A stretch of DNA of 61,637 nucleotides, the filler included, from Rhabdomonas costata (taxonomy: Eukaryota), in NCBI GenBank assembly GCA_019059605.1. It is 23 parts of 23 records of this genome, joined end to end, with 100 filler letters (N's around TTAATTAATTAA, not from the genome) between each part and the next. Parts side by side here need not be neighbours in the genome. Positions count along the whole stretch, not along the records: positions 51,013 to 53,594 come from JAHMHO010002755.1; 22 more parts are not named here. One strand, 5' to 3'. Below are positions 22,120-58,774 of this stretch, piece after piece; the stretch's first letter is position 1, and each line of letters begins with the position of its first letter. The position numbers and the translations under genes were made by a program. Under the pieces are notes generated by a model. That model did no database searches and was not told the DNA's origin. It worked only from the letters and a program-made list of their open reading frames with translations.

Positions 22120-23835
22120 TTACTTCTTGGCCGGAGCCTTGAAGGTGGCCAGGGCAACTCCGCTGGTCACCATCTGCGCCAGGGTACCGTACAGGACCCG
22201 GTTGAGGTGCTCAGTGAAGGCAAACGCCGCCTCGGTCACGGGGTACTGCAGAATGGGCGGAATGGAGGTCTTGACCCCAGGGATACGATCCTCGGTGGAG
22301 GCACGGGCAACGCAATTGCCGCGAAGCCCCTCTCGGCCGGCGAAGCGGTCAAAGCCGGAGATCTTCACCCCGCCAAAGGGCAGCGACTGGCAGAGGTAGT
22401 TAATTCCTGGAATCGCATGAGAATACGGAAGCGCTGCAACTGATTACGTGGATAACTATTTGTCCCAGGAAAATTCATTGACAGGTGTACATGGAAAGAA
22501 CATGTGGCGATATGCACCAAGAAGCAGAAGCAGAAGCAGAAGCGGTGCAGCGGGCCCGGCGCACGCACCGAAGTCATTCACGTTAACCATCCCTGTGACG
22601 ATGCGGTCCGCAATTGCCCGTGCCCGCGCCACATTCCCGGAAAATACACTGGAGCCAAGGCCGTAGGGACACCTGCGTAGAGGCAGTCGGGGATGCAAAG
22701 CGACTGAAGCAAACCAAGAACTGCAGCACCTTACACGCGGGTTCTTCTCTGACAACTGGGGACACCACTTTTCCTCTTTTCAGATGCAAAATGGAGCAGG
22801 TGAGTACAGAATTGTAGAGGGGCGAGGTGCGGGTGCGGACGTACATTGGTGAGTCCCTCCGCAAATAGTGACCTTCTGAATAAAAGCAAGCAACCGTGTC
22901 CATCACTGTCACAATTTACTGCCCTCATCCCATGTCCGGAAATTGTGGGGACCACTACCCCACATGTAGAGTCGCTGCGAGTCACGGTTGCACAGTTGCA
23001 GGGGGGGAAATCGAGGGCAGGATGAGGGGTGGCCAATTCCCACCCCTGCCACCTGTTCACGATCTCAGTCGCCTCCTCGTCGGACTCGAACTTCATCACA
23101 ACCAGGATGGGCCCAAACACTTCCTCGTTCGCAATCGGGGTGTCCACGGTGACGTTCTGCGCACAACAAAAAAGACCACGCACAGAACAGGACGAAACAC
23201 ATCAGCTCCCAAGGTCCGCTTCGGCTCTGCCCTCACTGTTACCGTTAAGCAAAGCAAAAATGGCATGGGACAGACGTTTCCAAGGGGGAGGGGGCAGAGA
23301 CCTTATGTCCACCTTATGTCCGTCCTCAGTCAATCCATAATGGGCTGCCCAAAAGTTTCAACTCTCCGCCAGAGCTATCGCTTACCTTGGTTCATCCCAC
23401 TTGTGAGGGTGCGCAGCTACTTTGTGCAGACAGTAGCGGTTATTCCAGCGAAAAGAAGGGGCCCGTGCCTCCTCCATCGTTGCCCATCTTGAAGAAGGGA
23501 TTCGAAGAGATATGAGGTGATGCTTGGTTTCGCTGGAAGTCCAACATATACACCCCCCCCCGGGTCATTAGGTGCAGGACATACGGTGATGAGAGTTGGA
23601 GGGAAGAAGTTGTCACTGGTGGCCTTACCCCCGGCCAGAACTTTGGCGCCGGCCTTGACGGAGTCGTCCAGCAGCTTCTGGATCTTCTTCACGGAGGCCC
23701 CACCCATGGTCATCGCGCCCAAGTCCTTCACCGGAGGGGCGGAGGAGGGACCTTGGGACAACCCCTTCACCGTCTCCAGCAGTGCACTAACCACCTTGTC
23801 GTGGATGGAAGTGTGCAGCAGCACCCTCTCTAGCC
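22120..23835 (-). CDS. Aldehyde dehydrogenase, ALDH22/Msc7-like, 3' four exons
   Basis: GT-AG exons give [14 protein letters not shown]..., [31 protein letters not shown]...GMVNVNDFG and [28 protein letters not shown]...[18 protein letters not shown]. Stop at 22120-22122. Confidence 0.9.
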
Positions 23836-24161
23836 CTGCAAGGTGGGACAGCAAAGTACAGCACCTCAAGCACCTGCGAATGTCACCACAAGACCGAAGA
23901 CACAAAGACAAATGCACGGGAACCCCACCCAGCAAAAAGAAGACCACCAGCACGAACCACGAACCACGAACCCACAAAACACAAAGCTCACCAACCACAC
24001 CAGCCAATGCAGCAACCAACACCCGAACCAAAACACGTACAGAGACCGCTAAGAGCTNNNNNNNNNNNNNNNNNNNNNNNNNNNNNNNNNNNNNNNNNNN
24101 NTTAATTAATTAANNNNNNNNNNNNNNNNNNNNNNNNNNNNNNNNNNNNNNNNNNNNGGTG

Positions 24162-35715: not shown

Positions 35716-37113
35716 TCAACTCCCCTGGGACCCTCGCTTGCGGTTCCGAGCTCGAGCTCGCAGATCTGCTATGTAAATACTCAACACAGCGTCCAGCTCA
35801 TCCTCAACCTTGTTCCCAAACGCCTCTAATGACGTCAGGTTGGGGAAGAAAGAGGAAGCCATGAACGCTTGCATTCCCGCATCCCCAATCAAGTTGCGAG
35901 ATACATCCAACGACGCCAGCATGGGGAAGAAAGAAGATGCTGCAAGGGCTTGCATTCCCGCATCCCCGATCCTGTTGGAGTTCACATTCAAGTACGTGAG
36001 CTTAGGAAAGAAGGGCGAACTCGCAAGCGCTTGCATTCCGGCATCCTCGAACCAGTTTGCTATCAAATGCAACGAGGTGAGGTTGGGCAAGAAGGTTGAT
36101 GCCGCGAGCGCCTGCATTCCCGCCTGTCGGAGCTCGTTGCTGAACAAATCCAGGGATGCGAGGTTGGGGAAGAAAGGCGAATCCGCAAGCGCTTGCATCC
36201 CATCAGCCTCGATCCGGTTGAAAACCAAACCCAGGGACGTGAGGTTGGGGAAGAAAGAGCTGGCAGCAAGAGCTTGCATTCCCGCAGCCAGGATCCCGTT
36301 CCCCCCCACGTCCAAGGACGTGAGGTTAGGAAAGAAAGGGGAAGCTGCGAACGCCAGTATTCCTGCGTCCCCGATCGAGTTCTGAGCAATATGCAGGGAC
36401 TTCAGATTCGTAAAGTAAGAAGACGCCGCAAACGCTTGGATTCCTTCGGCGGAGATCCGGCTGCGAGTCACATCCAAGGAGGTTAAATTGGGAAAGGACG
36501 TTGTAGATGCAAGCGCTTCCATTCCCGAGTCCTCGATTTCATTATTGGACACATCCAAGAACCTGAGACTAGGGAAGAATGGGGAAGCTGCCAAGGCTTC
36601 CATGCCTTTGGCCCAGATCTGGTTGAAGCTCACATCCAAGTACGTGAGGTTGGGGAAGCAAGATGAAGCCGCAAGCATTTGTGCACCTCCCACCACGAGG
36701 ATATTGCGGGACAGGACCAACAACTTCAGGTTGGGGAAGGCAGAGGTCGCGAGGGCTTGCAGTCCCGCAAGCCCATTGTGATTCTCGCTAACATCTAAGA
36801 AGGTGAGATTCGGGAAAAGAGGTGTAGTCATGTCCACCGCTGCAGTCTTCAACAAAAGCGTCATAAGCTGCTTTCCTTTAATGGAGATTTCGGCAGCGGA
36901 GCAGCCCAGCCACATGCTCCCTCGAGCGTTGACCAACTCGAAGGGGCGAAGAGTCTCTGGAAGGCGGAGCACAACTTTCCACTTTGGGACAAAGATCTCA
37001 TCCACCAGAGACCGAAACTGCTGACAAACCAGCCGAAGGAAAAGCTGAGGATTCAGCTCCAGGAAATTGAAACAGCATTCTAGTGTGTCGACAGGAAGTG
37101 CGGAAATTGACAT
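35716..37113 (-). CDS. Intronless F-box + leucine-rich-repeat protein (13 repeats of about 27 aa)
   Basis: The N-terminus ISALPVDTLECCFNFL...LFLRLVCQQFRSLV is an F-box pattern. The repeats read FPNLTSLDVxxNxIGDAGMQALAASxF. This is the only long ORF in the window; ATG at 37113. Confidence 0.88.
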   Translation of the reverse strand: MSISALPVDTLECCFNFLELNPQLFLRLVCQQFRSLVDEIFVPKWKVVLRLPETLRPFELVNARGSMWLGCSAAEISIKGKQLMTLLLKTAAVDMTTPLFPNLTFLDVSENHNGLAGLQALATSAFPNLKLLVLSRNILVVGGAQMLAASSCFPNLTYLDVSFNQIWAKGMEALAASPFFPSLRFLDVSNNEIEDSGMEALASTTSFPNLTSLDVTRSRISAEGIQAFAASSYFTNLKSLHIAQNSIGDAGILAFAASPFFPNLTSLDVGGNGILAAGMQALAASSFFPNLTSLGLVFNRIEADGMQALADSPFFPNLASLDLFSNELRQAGMQALAASTFLPNLTSLHLIANWFEDAGMQALASSPFFPKLTYLNVNSNRIGDAGMQALAASSFFPMLASLDVSRNLIGDAGMQAFMASSFFPNLTSLEAFGNKVEDELDAVLSIYIADLRARARNRKRGSQGS

Positions 37114-38044
37114 TGCACCACAGAAGCAAAGAAGCGAAATTCTGACGAGTTCAAAAAAGCCCAACTGTCAACTGCAAGATAAGTAATCTCCTGTGGAAAG
37201 CTCTCAGGCCTCTAGTAGTTTGCTCTTTGAAGGGGGTTAAACGTTCAGCCCCAATAAACGGTCAAAATTATCTTAACCCCCTTCATACTAAATTATGTTT
37301 GTCTGTTTGGGCATAAAACAGTGTGCGCAACCGCGTGTTGCTAGATGCTTTTTGAGGTGGTTAACACAGTTCACCAAACCCCCGAGTATTAAATCCCCCC
37401 CCTCACAAAAACAGCCGGCAACAACAATTCCACATATCCGCAAAAGCCCAAAACCTTCGGCAGTACTAAACGTCTATCGCCCCCCCCCACCCCAACACCN
37501 NNNNNNNNNNNNNNNNNNNNNNNNNNNNNNNNNNNNNNNNNNNTTAATTAATTAANNNNNNNNNNNNNNNNNNNNNNNNNNNNNNNNNNNNNNNNNNNNG
37601 GTTTTGTTTTCTTTCTGTCTCTCCGTGGTGACGATGGTACGTAGAATAATATAGACTTGGTTTTGCCGGTTCTGATCTCTTCGACGCATTGATGGGGATT
37701 CGACCATCTCATTGGGCCCACTTTGATCTTGCTTTGACCTTTTCATCGCCTTATAGCCCTGTATGTTGTGGTTTCTTCTTCTCCTCTGTGGTTTTTTCTC
37801 TTATCGCTGTTCTGGGTTCCTTCCAATTTCACTGTGGCGGTTGCTCTTTCGTCTCACCCGAAGCAAAGAGCAAAAGGGGACGTCTTCAGTAGAAACAAAA
37901 CCTGCACATGAGCAACAGTGTAGAAAAGTGCTACGTGCGGCCGGTTTCCGCGGTTTCCCCGATCCACACAGAAGAATTGTGCAAGATGCAGAGGTCACCC
38001 CAGTGAGAGACCGGACCGGAAATGAAACGTGGACAATACACAAA

Positions 38045-43000: not shown

Positions 43001-43236
43001 GGGAAAGCACAGGTATATCCGCTCCCATTAAGAGCCGTTTTGGCTGTCCAAGGAAGACCGGATTGTGCTCAAAACCGGGTGCAGGAGCCCCAACCCCGCA
43101 TGGACCCTCAGCGGCCACACGATCGACACGGTGGAGACGAGCTCGGTCAACCGAATGGCGCGCACACGAGCAGAGTGCTCTTTAGAAACAGGATATCATG
43201 ATTAAGACCACTTCGAGAAGTTTGACCCAGGCCTAC

Positions 43237-45546
43237 CTGGGTCCTGCCCGCACTTGTAGTAGTACCACATGAACATGAATGTGGAGATGTCGAAGAAGGA
43301 GGACAACGGGCCGATGATCATCATGAAGCGGAGGATCCCCGTGGTCTTCCAGATTTTGGGCTTCATCAGGAAATCCTCGTCCATGTTGTCCCAGGGGATG
43401 GGCAGCTGGGAGATGTCGTACAGGAGGTTCAGCAAAATGATCTGCAGCGGATCCATCGGCAGAAAGGGCAGCCACAGCGCGGCGAACATCACACTGAGAG
43501 CGGGCGAAAAGAGTAACAACGGAGGTTTCACAGGGCTCACCAACACGGGGGCGCCGGGAACACCCGGGAACCCCTTTGTTAATAGTCCAAGAGAAATCGA
43601 GAAGCGGAGCACAGTAAGCAACTCGCCCAAACAGTCCTTCACCTGAGAAATTATCTTTCCAAGGCCAACACCATAATCGGAGACTTTGATTGCGCCACAG
43701 GTCGGCGAACAGCAGGGGACACTGGAAGGGTAACTGAGATTCTTCAGAAAATAAGCGATGCTCCAACTGAGCCTGAAGCAACGTGCTTCGGCTGTATCTG
43801 AAAAGGAACCGTGACAAACATTGCCCTGTTCCTCCCCTTGCAAAAGGTTCACACAGACGCACAAGGAGGAGTCGAGAGCCAGGAAGCGGACACCAATACC
43901 AGAGAAAAAGGGAGGGAGAGAGGATGCACAGAACTCAAAATACTCAACAGTGAGCAGCAAATATAAAGAAATATAAAAACAGCTAACGACCTGAACATGT
44001 TTCCAAAGTTCGAGGAAACGGCCATCTTGATGTACTTGCTGGTGTTGCCGTAGGTCAGCCTGCCCTGGTACACCCCCTGCTCCAGCACCATCAGGTCCTT
44101 CTCCAGGAGGATGACATCCGCGCTCTCCCTGGCGATGTCCGTCGCGGAGTCCTTTTTTGGAGGTGTGTGGTGTGGTGAAGAGGGGCGTGTTGTGAGTAGC
44201 TGAGGAAACAGCCCAGACGCAGCAGGAATGATAGTGAGCAAGCAATCAAGTGAGAGAGACGCATCATTGGGTGCAGAACGTCCTCATCTTATCATGGCAG
44301 CGCACACAGGAAAGTGGGGTGACTTCAACAGATCACAACCAATGTATATATGGTCGGCAAAGTCTGATTGTACAGGTGGAGAGGGCCCTCTTCCGGGGGG
44401 CTTTAAGCATAACAGAGCCATTCCAATCCACACACGCGTGGTTTGGTCACTTCTACCTTCTTACCACTAGACTGTGTTCTAAGTTGGATATTAATCAATT
44501 CTGTTTAATCCGTTCACGTTATCGGCTCCGTCCCAGAAAGAGCAGTAACTTAAGACGTCTTCATAGAAATCGCCATCACAAAACCCAATAAGAAGCACAC
44601 CACAGACACGCCCACGTCGCTCTCCCGAAGCGCAGGGGCGTCGTTGATGCCATCCCCCAGGAATCCCACAATGTGGCCCGCTCCCCGCAGCACGTTCACC
44701 ACACGCGCCTTCTGCAGCGGCGTCAGCTTGGCGAAGATCGTCGTGGCCTCCGCCGCCACACGCAGCTCCTCATCCGTCATGGCCTCCACTTCGGTCGAGG
44801 TCAGCGTGCCCGTGACCTCGAAGTCCATCGTCTGGCACACCTTCTGGCACACCCGCAAAGAGTCCCCGGTCAGCACCTTCACTGCAACCCCACGGCGCTG
44901 CAGCTCCTTGATGGCCGGGGCGGCGGTATCCTTCGGGGGGTCCAGGAAGGCCAGGAAACCCGCCAGCACCAGCTCCTGCTCCCGTACGCTGTGTACGGGG
45001 AATCGATGGAGTACATGTTTGGTGAGTGAGATTGGCACGAGGCAGTGAGGAGGAGGAGAATGTTTTTGGGGAAGAAGGAGGCGATGGAGTTGTCGCGATA
45101 TCCGCTGTGGTTGGCCGCGATGGGAAGGGGAACCCTCGATCCGCACACCCACCATTACCAAAAGTGCATCTCCGATAGGAGAGGAGGCGCAAGTTACCGG
45201 AGAAGCGTTGCAAAAAGAAGGAGGACACAGCAAGGGCAAAATAAAGATCACTAACAAGCAAAGGAGGAGGAGAGGAGAGTTGTGTGGAGAACGAGTTCTT
45301 GTGCCCAACCCATAGACACGGCAGGTAACACCTCAAATAGAAAATCTTGCGGCCCAAACCCACTGCAAAAGATGTGCCCACCTGTCGTTGGGGCCCAGAA
45401 CGCGGTACGCCACCGCTACCGCCCGCAGCCCGTCCGCGTTCAGGTTCTCGCTCCTCTGGCGGGCCTGGGCCTTGGTCTCCTCAGTCAGCCCAACGGTCAT
45501 GTCCGCGCCAGACCCCAGGAAGGCATCCGCCGAGTCCTCGTCCCCA
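43237..45546 (-). CDS. mgtA: Mg2+-translocating P-type ATPase (P3B, MgtA/MgtB-like), four internal exons
   Basis: Exons at 45546-45382, 44988-44601, 44151-43991 and 43493-43237 with GT-AG introns. Motifs: [88 protein letters not shown]. Confidence 0.9.
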
Positions 45547-50895: not shown

Positions 50896-51211
50896 GGAGG
50901 CAACCCCCCACCNNNNNNNNNNNNNNNNNNNNNNNNNNNNNNNNNNNNNNNNNNNNTTAATTAATTAANNNNNNNNNNNNNNNNNNNNNNNNNNNNNNNN
51001 NNNNNNNNNNNNCCAGCACCGGCACGAGCACGAGCACCATGACCCACCCCATGGATGTGGATGGCGTCGTGGATGGGTGCTGGCTGATGGTTTCGTTGTT
51101 CTTGCTCTTCTTCTTCTTCTTCTTCTTCTTCTTTGCTATGCTATTTTTTTTTCGACTTTTTCCTGCATCGATTTTTAAGGGAATGTGTAGATTTTTGCCT
51201 TCTTTATATAG

Positions 51212-53506
51212 AAACATTCAAGGACATGAGTGAGGAGGAACTGAAGGAGTTCTGTACATTGGTCTACTACCCAGAGGTGCGCGACGTGTGTGTGTGTACT
51301 TTCCACGATGGAGTACTGGGCAAAAAAATACCGTTTGCCAACTCCATCATTGAAGGGAATGCAGTCGCACGTTGTGCTTTCGTGTTCTTCTCCCCCGCTG
51401 GTGAGTCAGGGTAGTATCACTGCCCCAAAAACCTTGGCCAAGGACGCGGGAGTGTTGATGAAATCACACAGCACCTCCGGAGGAGCTCATGCCTTTCCCA
51501 AACCGGGTGTATCGGTTGAGTAACGGGCCTGTATGCAGGAGAAGCTCCCGCTTCTGCTGGAGAAGTCCCACGACAGGAAGGCCCTGTTGGGGAGGCTGCT
51601 CAGCCAGGTTGTCATGCTGTGCCGTGTGTTCAGCCGGAAGTACACCCGCTCCTACGTTCGCAAGGCCATGCCTCCGACCTTCGCCCACGCCATTGAGGAG
51701 CTCCTGGTGTGCCTTAGGGGTTGGCGCTGAGTGATAAGTGACCCCCTGCAGCTGCAGTACATCCGTTGAAGCGTTCTTGGTTGGTGTGCGAGGTTGCGTC
51801 CTGCATGCAGAGTGCAATGTGCGGTTTGTGGCCCGCGTCTCCGAATTCTATGGGCGGGGGGCACAGCAAGAGCTTCCTTCTGACACCACGGCCTCGGCCA
51901 ACAACTACGACCGGGCACAGTACATCTCCACGATTATCAGCACCATTGTCAGCGTGGGTGAGGCCGAAGACTTTATCTGCGCCGTGGCCCACCTGTGCCA
52001 GCGCCTCGCGGTGGCCAAGGTGCACGTCATTGGGGACATCTGGGACCGAGGCCCAGGCGCAGAGATCATCCTGGATACCCTGTGCAAGTGAGTACACCCC
52101 CTCACCCCCTTAAACCTCCTCCTGATCTCTAATCTAATTCCATTCAAACTACACCCCTGTAGCAAAGAGCAAAGGTGGCCCGCTTCCCACCGTTATCAAG
52201 GAGGCAATTAACCTTGGACCCTAAAAACCACCTTTGACGATGAATGGAAAGCCCCATTTCACCTAAGATAGGGCACGGTTCTTCAGGTGCCTTCACATTT
52301 TTGTGACGCCCATCGCACTAAGCGTGTCCATGCTAACAAGCGATTCTGCTTTCTTTCCTTTGTGTGCAGGTACCACGCGGTGGATATTCAGTGGGGAAAC
52401 CACGACATCGGTTCGCCCCAACCCCCTCGCCTTCCTCTTCCCCATTGTTCTGCTTCCCAGTGCTTTCGTTGCGGCTGCCCACAATGTGAAGATCATGGCC
52501 TAAAAGATTTTTTCTAAGCAGCGCTTTTTCTCGGATCCCTTTTGCAATTTGTAGGTTTTGGGCACGTGTTGTATTCAAAGCTAGCCCATGGTGTGTATTG
52601 AAAATGGTAATTCAGGGAAGGATTTAACGTATTGCAGACCATAAACGGCTTGCAGTTTCATCAACGTTTCCCGGAAATAACATGACGCAATGTCCTCCTG
52701 TCGTCTTGGTGTGTGTATTGCTGCGTTGGATATGACGGACGTCCTCCGCATCGAAACATTAAAATTATAGTGTGGATGGGTGCCGCGGCGGGCTCGGACG
52801 TGTGCATCGCGAACAACATCCGGGTGGCACTGCGGTACTCTAACATGAAGACCCTTGAGGAGGGCTACGCCATCAGTATGCTGCCCCTGGTCTCCTTCGC
52901 CGAGGAGACCTACAAGGTGTCGGAGTGTGTTTTTGCTTTACTCGCGCGCCTTCCAGGAACATAAAGCAATTTCTGTTCGGCAGGCCGCTCTGGCTGTAAT
53001 ACGAATGCCGCTTTGGATTTGGCCTGTGTCTGTCCTCCGTACACTTGCACTGGTTCAGTCATCTGCCTCTTTTCTGCGACAGGCGGACCCATGCACCAAC
53101 TTTATCCCGAAAGCCTCTGCCGATGAGCCTTGCACGGCGAAGGAGCGGGAGCTGATCGGGAAGATGCACAAGGCCATATCGATCATTCAGACCAAGGTGC
53201 GGTCAGGCTCCTATGGGCGTGCTTCTCCGAGCTGCTACAACGAAAGTCATTGCATTTTCATTGCACCGGAAAATATAGGCAAGCGCTCCCTTTTTTTTGG
53301 TGTGCTTAGCTCGAGGCTGAGGTGATTCACCGGCACCCGGAGTGGAAGATGGACGACCGCCTGGTTCTGCAGATGATTGACTTCACGAACTACACCATCA
53401 AACTACCTGACGGGAAGGTCTACGAGCTGAACGACAAGAACTTCCCCACGGTGGACCCCGCGAACCCAAACAAGCTGAGTCCCGGAGAGCAAATCGTCGT
53501 GGAGCG
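51212..53506 (+). CDS. fbp: Class III (Firmicutes-type) fructose-1,6-bisphosphatase, seven internal exons
   Basis: Exons at 51212-51276, 51539-51706, 51867-52087, 52370-52410, 52771-52916, 53083-53196 and 53310-53506, all phase-consistent GT-AG. Motifs: TLVYYPEEKL, KYTRSYVRKAMP, HVIGDIWDRGP, VDIQWGNHDIVWMGAAAG, TLEEGYAI, KMHKAISIIQTKLE, FPTVDPANP. Confidence 0.93.
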
Positions 53507-54433
53507 GTACGCCAAGGATTCGGATATAAAGTGAGAGAAAAAGGAGCGCATGTAGCTCTTTTTCATCCCAACCCCAACCACACACACCCAACACNNNNNN
53601 NNNNNNNNNNNNNNNNNNNNNNNNNNNNNNNNNNNNNNTTAATTAATTAANNNNNNNNNNNNNNNNNNNNNNNNNNNNNNNNNNNNNNNNNNNNTGTTGT
53701 TTTTCTTTAAGGCAATGAAAAGGATCTCCCCGCAGCCTTAAAGAAAGACAACAGCAGACTAAGGGTGCACAGATACTGAACTGAAAAAAAGCTATAAAAA
53801 GCACAGCAGACGGCCCGAAATGGCCCGAAAATGGGAGTCCATGGGCCACTATTTTATTCAAATCATTTTTGGCACTGACAAAATGTCCAAAATGTCCAAA
53901 AGTTTGTTCAACTGACTGGGCAAGAATGCGAGGGGGAAACCAAAGTTAAATAAAGAGCGGGAAAGGGGAGAGAAAGGGAGGAGAAAAAACAACCAAGACA
54001 ATGAATTCGCGGGGTATGCAAAAGAGGTGGGCCTCAGTGAGCTTGATCCACTTCAATTTTGTCTGGTGTCTGGTGTAGATTGGCATTACTGTATCACGTT
54101 GGAAGTTTGCACTGTCCGCTTAACTACTTACTTAGGTGCAGGTTTCTCGTGACCTGCCGTGCTCCGTCATCCAGTTTTATCTGCATTTTCCTGCGTGCTT
54201 TTGATTGGTTGCTTTTTCCTTGCCCCTTCTGCCTTCCACCTGACACACCCTTTGCTTCGGACCTACACAAAAACCTACTACTCTCAAAATGAAACGGGCC
54301 AATGATGGCACGGCATGGAGGTGTTACGGTCGCACCTCGCAGAGGTGGAAAAAAAAACGCAAATGCACAGGCCTGAGCGCTTTGGAGCCGCAGCAGAGCG
54401 GCATCTCCGGCCTCACGTCTACGGCCAAGGCAT

Positions 54434-57495: not shown

Positions 57496-58505
57496 CGGTG
57501 AGTGTGTGGCGCCGGAGCGAACGTGTTCACGCCAGGGTCGTAGTCTCCTGGACCTATGACCAGGAAAAGCTCTTCGAAACCGGTCTTAGCAAGAACATCC
57601 GGGTCCTCAAGCCAGAGGAAAAATCTCCCAATCAACAGACGCTGACGCAGATCAACGTTACCCCCATCGAACATATTTCCGGACTGCATTGACAGGAAGG
57701 ATCTGGAAAACAGTCTGGGCTTCAATACAAGACCTCTTCAACGGCATGGATCCAAACATAGCAGTCTCTCATGCACTACGGCTAAATAAAAAGACACCGC
57801 CAAAGCACAACCTGGTGTTGACCCCCGCTTGGGGGGTGCTGGCTTGCCCTTAAGGGAGATCCGAGGGCCGCCCCAGGGGAGCTTCGGGTCGTAGTTACCA
57901 GGACCAGGAGTCTCCAGGCTCTGCAAGTCCTACGAAAAAGCCACTGGAATGGTCCAGTCTCAGCCGCAAAAATACCTCTCCTACAAATCTGCTCCCAATT
58001 CCAACTAGAAGTGGAAAGGTGACAGTCAGCGAATGCTGGCTGTGCGGACGCAGCAACGGTGCGGGCAGATCAAGCCCCAAGATCCAAGATGGGTGGTCCC
58101 GCGCGAGAAAGCAGGCACGATTATGAAGACCTTTGCGTCGGCCTTCCCCACGAAGGGCGAAATCAGGGAGAACAGGTGTATGTGTGTGCGGCTCATTGTG
58201 GCATATGGTGGGTTCAGCAGCATAAAGAGACTCTAACATAGTTGGACATAAACACATCTGCCTGCCGCTTACGGTGGGACTACTTCTGCATGCAGTCGAA
58301 AGAGACACTGGTCTCACGGATAGGTCCCCTCCGTATATGTGAGAGCTTAACTTAAGAAAAGATCGCTGGAAAGCCTGCGCCGATACCTTCTTTGGCGGCC
58401 CACCTTTGCCACCCCCAGTTTCCGAGCGGGACCGCTGGGCGGACGATCCAAAGCTGAAGGCCGGGCCCTTTTTCACGGTGACCTTGGGCTCGTACTGACC
58501 GGGCC
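57496..58505 (-). CDS. SHIPPO/ODF3 (STPG, PGPGxY) repeat protein, internal exons; likely axonemal
   Basis: Phase-consistent GT-AG exons 58505-58387 (GPGQYEPK...GPAFSFG), 57920-57812 (TPGPGNYDP...GPRISLKGK) and 57553-57496 (GPGDYDP). Confidence 0.8.
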
Positions 58506-58774
58506 CTGGGGGGGGACATCCGCGGCCAAACCCTCGGACTCAAATTTCACATTTCAACCAAACCAGCGCCATGCAGTGCGCAGCACACGCACAACTACTT
58601 CTCACCACCACCACTACAATAGGTTTGCACTCTCTTCACAGGACAGGGGGCGCACAGAGCAAATGTGCCTTGAGTTGATCCTTTTGTAAATGCCCAGCAG
58701 GACGACCTCGTGCCAGAAGTTCAAATCGCGGGCAAGAAAAAACAATGACGTAAATGCACCCTGCTTTTGCGGAA

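Follow-up and report, generated by a model that had tools for sequence, protein, structure and literature searches.

A class III fructose-1,6-bisphosphatase gene with many spliceosomal introns in the euglenid Rhabdomonas costata and its probable bacterial ancestry

Class III fructose-1,6-bisphosphatases (FBPases; Pfam family PF06874, FBPase_2), such as Fbp of Bacillus subtilis, are treated in the literature as bacterial enzymes. The class III Fbp of B. subtilis is reportedly, from work of Jules and colleagues in 2009, functionally equivalent to the class II enzyme GlpX. Metallophosphoesterases bind their metals through a series of motifs, namely D-x-H, GD-x-x-DR, GNH(D/E), a later H and GH. 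The usual eukaryotic enzyme is class I FBPase (PF00316), which belongs to an unrelated fold and family, the Li-sensitive sugar phosphatase superfamily. According to the available part of a review on glycosomes (PMC9512073), it catalyses the same reaction with the same role in the pathway. In kinetoplastids and diplonemids FBPase is glycosomal, and the same part of the review speaks of that one only. Here, we describe a class III FBPase gene fragment of the euglenid Rhabdomonas costata, located at positions 51212-53506 (+) of a stretch of 61,637 bases of DNA that was analysed as a whole (the window). The interpretation we favour, with a probability of roughly 0.8, is that of an intron-rich nuclear gene for a gluconeogenic, probably cytosolic class III FBPase that was laterally transferred from a bacterium.

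The fragment lies wholly inside one contig piece of 2.6 kb (51013-53594). As the initial annotation had proposed, seven exons splice in phase across six complete introns, and once these are removed, the reading frame stays open over 316 codons. All six complete introns have GT..AG borders, and stop codons are present in every frame between the exons. A further intron is cut by each contig end, and both partial introns show the single border expected there. Eight introns are therefore touched in 952 nucleotides (nt) of coding sequence, which is a high density. According to the available part of the R. costata paper (PMC8219788), introns hand-checked in six genes of this organism were all conventional GT/AG introns.

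A search with exon 3 found a protein of 710 amino acids (aa; P0001), which is RCo007679 of Rhabdomonas costata (EukProt EP00906_P005121). Residues 96-411 of this protein, the middle third of the gene, align to the spliced fragment without gaps, also at each of the six junctions; 301 of these 316 residues are identical (95%), while nothing in the window matches residues 1-94 or 412-710. As described in the available part of the R. costata paper (PMC8219788), the proteins of this organism were predicted from the transcriptome, the genome draft being too fragmented. The six splice junctions would thus have indirect support in RNA through the transcriptome-derived RCo007679.

On the (+) strand, the piece starts with the 3' part of an upstream intron in phase 1 (51013-51211, acceptor AG at 51210-51211) that is cut by the contig start and splits residue 95 of RCo007679 (E) as G|AA. 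Exon 1 (51212-51276) encodes residues 96-116, ending in LVYYPE, and is identical to RCo007679 at 21/21 residues; intron 1 (51277-51538, 262 nt, phase 0) separates it from exon 2 (51539-51706), which runs from EKLPLL to IEELL and is identical at 56/56 residues. After intron 2 (51707-51866, 160 nt, phase 0), exon 3 (51867-52087; 73/74 identical) starts with QELPSD and holds the second motif as GDIWDRGP (52032-52055). The start of this exon had initially been placed at about 51812, ending intron 2 some 55 nt too early: the 18 residues before 51867 are absent from RCo007679, and residues 1-27 of the reading from 51813 do not align to the PF06874 profile. Intron 3 (52088-52369, 282 nt, phase 2) has the borders GTGAGT..CAG and leads to the 41-nt exon 4 (52370-52410; 12/13 identical), which carries the third motif as WGNHD (52392-52406). 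Then follow intron 4 (52411-52770, 360 nt, phase 1), exon 5 (52771-52916; 49/49 identical), intron 5 (52917-53082, 166 nt, phase 0), exon 6 (53083-53196; 32/38 identical), ending in MHKAISIIQTK, and intron 6 (53197-53309, 113 nt, phase 0). Exon 7 (53310-53506; 58/65 identical) reads LEAEVIHRHPEW...VVE and ends as CG|gt at the donor GT of a further intron in phase 2, whose 5' part (53507-53594) is cut by the contig end. At this border RCo007679 continues with ...VVDRLRMSHL, while the window reads gtacgcc followed by a stop codon.

The exon translations were scanned in frame against Pfam, in which PF06874 has a gathering score of 27 bits. For all six exons scanned, PF06874 was the best family, and the matched ranges are colinear on the 639 positions of the profile and do not overlap: 66-86 (exon 1), 87-142 (exon 2), 145-208 (exon 3), 224-271 (exon 5), 273-309 (exon 6) and 310-376 (exon 7). 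Four exons score above the gathering score on their own (39.8, 72.5, 65.7 and 68.6 bits for exons 2, 3, 5 and 7) and the two short ones score below it (25.4 bits for exon 6 and 14.3 bits for exon 1). Exon 4, which with 13 aa is too short for the scan, fills profile positions 209-223 with its WGNHD, and the window covers positions 66-376 of the profile. RCo007679 matches PF06874 with 884.9 bits over positions 4-637, almost the whole profile; a scan of the same protein against NCBIfam returned no family. At the level of sequence comparison, these results show that the fragment is a member of the class III FBPase family, as had been proposed from its motifs.

Regarding these motifs, the initial annotation spoke of a full series. 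GDIWDRGP, WGNHD and MHKAISIIQTK|LE, the last one across the junction of exons 6 and 7, are indeed present, but the fragment covers 316 of about 640-710 residues, and the D-x-H motif, the C-terminal H and GH motifs and the C-terminal half of the protein fall outside the window. In an alignment of RCo007679 with 10 bacterial sequences, the residues D70 and H72, G228-D229, D232-R233-G234, G255-N256-H257-D258, H447 and N566-G567-H568 are invariant. The second (GD..DRG) and third (GNHD) of these invariant groups lie in the window, as GDIWDRG at 52032-52052 and GNHD at 52395-52406. Compared to the bacterial members, RCo007679 has about 34 extra N-terminal and about 20 extra C-terminal residues, as well as inserts of 7 residues after EELL and of 9 residues near the C-terminus.

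An AlphaFold2 (AF2) model built from an 11-row alignment has a mean predicted local distance difference test (pLDDT) score of 67.9, with the active-site loops below 50. When this model was compared to the PDB with Foldseek, a single match was obtained at E<=0.001, 9a7j_A, with 43% identity. This entry is an integrative cross-linking and deep-learning model named 'F16PC-GLPD' of the same family. A PDB sequence search yielded no experimental structures, and class III FBPase appears to have none. In one Atlas cluster, 95% of the members carry the Metallophos domain (PF00149).

The window copy and RCo007679 belong to the same gene family and are colinear over the six junctions, but they differ by 15 substitutions in 316 residues, and these are unevenly spread. 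Exons 1-5 account for only 2 of them in 213 residues, whereas 13 fall within the 103 residues of exons 6-7 (53083-53506, residues 309-411 of RCo007679; Fisher p 1.5e-5). Two readings fit this pattern: R. costata probably has at least two copies, or alleles, of the gene, and either the assembled transcript would be a mosaic of them, or the copies may have exchanged their 5' halves. The same uneven divergence, together with the lack of an exact match between RCo007679 and the window copy and the fact that a fragment is all that is visible, could indicate that the window copy is a non-functional, decaying paralogue, the functional gene being the source of RCo007679. We consider this improbable. 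The window copy shows no sign of decay: its 316 codons contain neither a stop nor a frameshift, the splice-site pairs are intact in six out of six cases, and so are both catalytic motifs present in the fragment. Furthermore, most of the 15 changes are conservative (L/V, S/A, T/S, D/E), and for at least two of them the same residue occurs in the same column of other family members: Chilomastix has YHAVD, and bacterial rows have KAIS.

The base composition of the fragment is host-like. The exons have a GC content of 58.7% and a third-position GC content (GC3) of 83%, and the introns have a GC content of 50.6%; a GC content of 58.25% is given for the R. costata transcriptome in the available part of its description (PMC8219788). 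The median GC content of the bacterial homologue genes is 40%. Long open frames on other pieces of the window match eukaryotic families in Pfam, and the setting is therefore that of a eukaryotic flagellate. Together with the six complete introns, these observations support a eukaryotic nuclear context for the class III FBPase gene. For a family that is overwhelmingly bacterial, found here on a short and unplaced contig, bacterial contamination of the assembly has to be considered as a source, but it can be excluded, in line with the initial annotation, which had called it very unlikely. Six complete GT..AG introns break the frame, with stops in every frame between the exons, the GC3 of 83% is far from the bacterial median gene GC, no bacterial protein is more than 54-55% identical, and RCo007679 is colinear with the spliced fragment.

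The closest relatives of the protein are found among bacteria. Of the 120 matches listed for RCo007679 as a query, 117 are of bacterial length (640-675 aa) with 51-54% identity; the remaining three are the query itself, P0005 (804 aa) and P0026 (799 aa), and no second EukProt entry is among them. Because of their length, P0005 and P0026 were taken into account as possible eukaryotic relatives; this was rejected, as both turn out in the alignment to be bacterial-type sequences that are tandemly duplicated internally, and both were left out of all trees. When prokaryotes were scanned with a single genome for each species, 80 loci were kept, every one of which is bacterial, and the Atlas clusters shown are bacterial only. 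The named bacterial relatives belong to the Bacillota, Bacteroidota, Balneolota, Chloroflexota and Pseudomonadota, which is broader than the mainly Firmicutes distribution originally assumed. Overall, the euglenid protein shares 48-54% identity with bacterial members of the family. It resembles bacterial class III FBPases such as B. subtilis Fbp in its whole-length family match (seen for RCo007679), its metallophosphoesterase motifs and the expected reaction, and differs from them in its many spliceosomal introns, its GC3-rich codons, its terminal extensions and its two inserts.

The trees constructed include a FastTree tree of 107 rows, a tree of a 57-row subset of these made with IQ-TREE and C20, a quick tree of 45 rows and an IQ-TREE tree of 42 rows with C20 and posterior mean site frequencies (PMSF) and 1000 ultrafast bootstraps. 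In the 107- and 57-row trees, the two R. costata rows share one long stem, of 0.9 and 1.38 changes per site, respectively, that lies outside the Bacillota. They are placed beside a Chloroflexota/Balneolota/Pseudomonadota-type group, with weak attachment (91 SH-like support with 107 rows and 82 in the Shimodaira-Hasegawa approximate likelihood ratio test (SH-aLRT) with 57 rows). In the 45-row quick tree, to which other eukaryotes were added, R. costata falls in a basal polytomy, and in the 42-row tree it joins divergent unnamed bacterial-type representatives with supports of 72/82 and then 46/5. A donor within the Chloroflexota/Balneolota/Pseudomonadota-type group was considered and set aside, and no donor lineage is named here, because this early affinity dissolved with wider sampling in the 45- and 42-row trees. 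The initial proposal of a lateral transfer thus holds insofar as these sequence comparisons are best read as bacterial ancestry through gene transfer, given the 117 of 120 listed matches and the 80 of 80 loci that are bacterial, whereas the donor and the nesting are weak in the trees. The phylogeny with bacterial and protist homologues that had been suggested gives a long R. costata stem with a weak attachment in every tree.

Some of the relatives have an unusual architecture. Three long proteins from Logan assemblies, P0143, P0144 and P0150 (1419-1706 aa), form a tight clade with P0139 and cluster with bacterial-type rows. In a Pfam scan, P0143 and P0150 show FBPase_2 only, in two C-terminal stretches, with about 700-1000 unassigned residues before or between them. 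In P0136 (808 aa, Logan), an HD_4 domain (PF13328, 48 bits) is fused to the N-terminus of a bacterial-type class III FBPase, which may be a regulatory fusion.

R. costata is not the only eukaryote with an enzyme of this class. Cluster representatives were searched exhaustively with HMMER, which yielded 3291 matches, and ten long or multi-stretch representatives from the best 150 of these were identified by name, three of which are eukaryotic. The carriers are Pelomyxa schiedti (KAH3763831.1, annotated as 'fructose-bisphosphatase class III'), Chilomastix cuspidata (EP00767_P001110) and Aduncisulcus paluster (GKT25804.1), with full-length FBPase_2 proteins that score 713-817 bits. A second Aduncisulcus copy (P0276) and an unnamed relative (P0275) came from a search with a profile of the eukaryotic sequences; among the 120 matches listed for this search, Chilomastix and two Aduncisulcus entries are the only ones named as eukaryotic. 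No other euglenozoan is present among the best 120 matches of either search or the ten named representatives, none of these searches being aimed at euglenid, diplonemid or kinetoplastid proteomes. As in R. costata, the distribution in Pelomyxa, Aduncisulcus and Chilomastix appears patchy and bacteria-like. The latter three live as anaerobes, Rhabdomonas being an osmotroph that is facultatively anaerobic, and the fornicate enzymes have large inserts that the R. costata protein does not have. The R. costata protein is 43-47% identical to the other protist class III FBPases, and the identity among the eukaryotic sequences as a whole (39-47%) is no higher than that to bacteria.

In the 42-row tree, there is solid support for the fornicate-type clade: the unnamed rows P0145, P0275 and P0129 group at 99/95 with both named fornicates, and P0145 and P0129 carry the large fornicate inserts, P0275 being outside that alignment. 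Pelomyxa falls inside a bacterial group at 97/97. When the eight eukaryotic or eukaryote-like rows of this set were held together, the cost was 5.49 log-likelihood units (lnL), with a p value of 0.401 in the approximately unbiased test (p-AU), and in the 45-row set, holding six rows together improved on the quick free tree by 31.15 lnL (p-AU 0.905). Since all of these rows have long branches and the three unnamed rows were joined to the constrained group after the tree and the inserts had been seen, these AU results say only that one origin is compatible with the data. Regarding a broad, vertically inherited eukaryotic clade, which had been named beforehand as the outcome that would speak against a transfer, the grouping passes the AU test, but the clade, if real, is sparse rather than broad.

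These data bear on two alternatives to a separate transfer into the euglenid line. Under the first, all carrier eukaryotes would go back to a single acquisition, followed either by spread between eukaryotes or by inheritance with many losses, and the euglenid gene would belong to one clade with those of fornicates and Pelomyxa. We regard this as possible, although rather unlikely. It would agree with both AU results, with a quick tree in which R. costata is sister to the fornicate-type clade (SH-aLRT 16) and with the residues KLP that follow YYPE in all six eukaryote-type rows, where of three bacterial rows shown one has KIP and two differ. Yet in the careful 42-row tree Pelomyxa and R. costata are found in different places, R. 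costata shares no indel with the other eukaryotic rows in the alignment, the large inserts being limited to four fornicate-type rows, and the long branches can attract each other. A related proposal, that the euglenid, fornicate and archamoebid enzymes form one eukaryotic clade that was captured once and then passed among mostly low-oxygen protists, or that is very old, is slightly more doubtful still; if it were true, the densely introned euglenid copy would be its most integrated member.

The second alternative, in which the last eukaryotic common ancestor already had a class III enzyme that was inherited vertically and lost on a massive scale, seems very unlikely to us. The carriers do come from three supergroups (Discoba, Metamonada and Amoebozoa), and monophyly of the eukaryotic rows passes the AU test. 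Against this, only four eukaryotic species are named, with no further EukProt entry in the RCo007679 list and no eukaryotic names beyond Chilomastix and Aduncisulcus in the eukaryote-profile list, the sequences are no closer to each other than to bacteria, the family appears to be absent from most deep eukaryotic lineages and dozens of independent losses would be required.

Based on the above, the gene would ultimately be bacterial by lateral transfer, and it may have reached the euglenid line from a bacterium directly or via another eukaryote. The transfer would be old enough for the gene to have acquired its many introns, the codon usage of the host, small inserts and short extensions at the termini. 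Judging by its family, the protein is predicted to be a metallophosphoesterase that depends on divalent metal and cleaves the C1 phosphate from fructose 1,6-bisphosphate. In this way, it would supply the irreversible step of gluconeogenesis in R. costata, an osmotroph that stores the glucan paramylon. To call this an alternative gluconeogenic step, as the initial annotation did, presupposes that a class I enzyme exists alongside it. Phosphoenolpyruvate (PEP) carboxykinase and three paramylon synthase copies are described for this organism in the available part of its paper (PMC8219788), and since an osmotroph with these enzymes turns absorbed small organics into storage glucan, an FBPase step is needed. 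The enzyme is probably cytosolic; RCo007679 ends in ...LPPM and has no C-terminus resembling a type 1 peroxisomal targeting signal (PTS1).

Several points weigh against a bacterial gene acquired by the euglenid and working in gluconeogenesis. The euglenid sequence is not placed firmly inside any bacterial group in the trees, and its nesting among bacteria is not provable, because it forms a single long branch and the trees have no root. Other eukaryotes carry class III FBPase as well, and a single clade of them passes the AU tests. Because the AF2 model is mediocre, the metallophosphoesterase fold is assigned from the motifs and one Atlas cluster, and the enzyme activity, metal dependence and regulation are predicted from the family. 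The uneven distribution of the differences suggests that the RCo007679 transcript derives at least partly from another copy or is an assembly chimera. Finally, the window copy is a fragment, and whether it is complete and expressed is more than its sequence can tell.

Turning to the literature, full-text searches, supplementary tables aside, brought up no paper that deals with a eukaryotic class III FBPase. The available text of the R. costata paper (PMC8219788) mentions neither fructose nor FBPase or bisphosphatase, and FBPase and bisphosphatase are also not mentioned in the available part of a comparison of euglenozoan metabolism. According to the accessible portion of a paper on retortamonads, PPi-PFK seems to replace fructose bisphosphatase there, and a Giardia paper, likewise available in part, reports no convincing FBPase. 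The R. costata protein is already in public sequence collections, and the other protist homologues are already annotated by name. The R. costata class III FBPase is so far undiscussed and is not a new kind of system. A class that is treated as bacterial is found here as a fully integrated nuclear gene of a euglenid, with database entries in at least three other protists, and one more step of core carbon metabolism in protists would thereby be filled by a bacterial gene. As the transfer of metabolic enzymes into protists is common, the general view is unchanged. The finding raises the question of whether Rhabdomonas makes paramylon via the class III enzyme in place of, or beside, a class I enzyme. 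A eukaryotic class III member, if well-behaved, could also be of some practical use for a family without an experimental structure.

As for its make-up, the window is a chain of 23 separate contig pieces of 2573-2609 bases each, most of them 2581-2587 bases and apparently sorted by length. The spacers between the pieces are identical and consist of 44 N, TTAATTAATTAA and 44 N (e.g. 50913-51012 and 53595-53694). Because of this arrangement, adjoining pieces are not genome neighbours and no gene can be read past about 2.6 kb. The Pfam matches on other pieces, all on the (-) strand, include an aldehyde dehydrogenase (23420-24055) and a SHIPPO flagellar repeat protein (57898-58539). At 43205-45332, two long frames on one contig match PF00689 (the C-terminus of P-type cation ATPases) and PF00702 (HAD hydrolase) and are probably one P-type ATPase gene split by an intron. 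An F-box protein with many leucine-rich repeats (LRR_6, 180 bits) is encoded at 35719-37167; this frame is uninterrupted for 483 codons, and such a length of more than 1.4 kb without an intron is unusual in this window.

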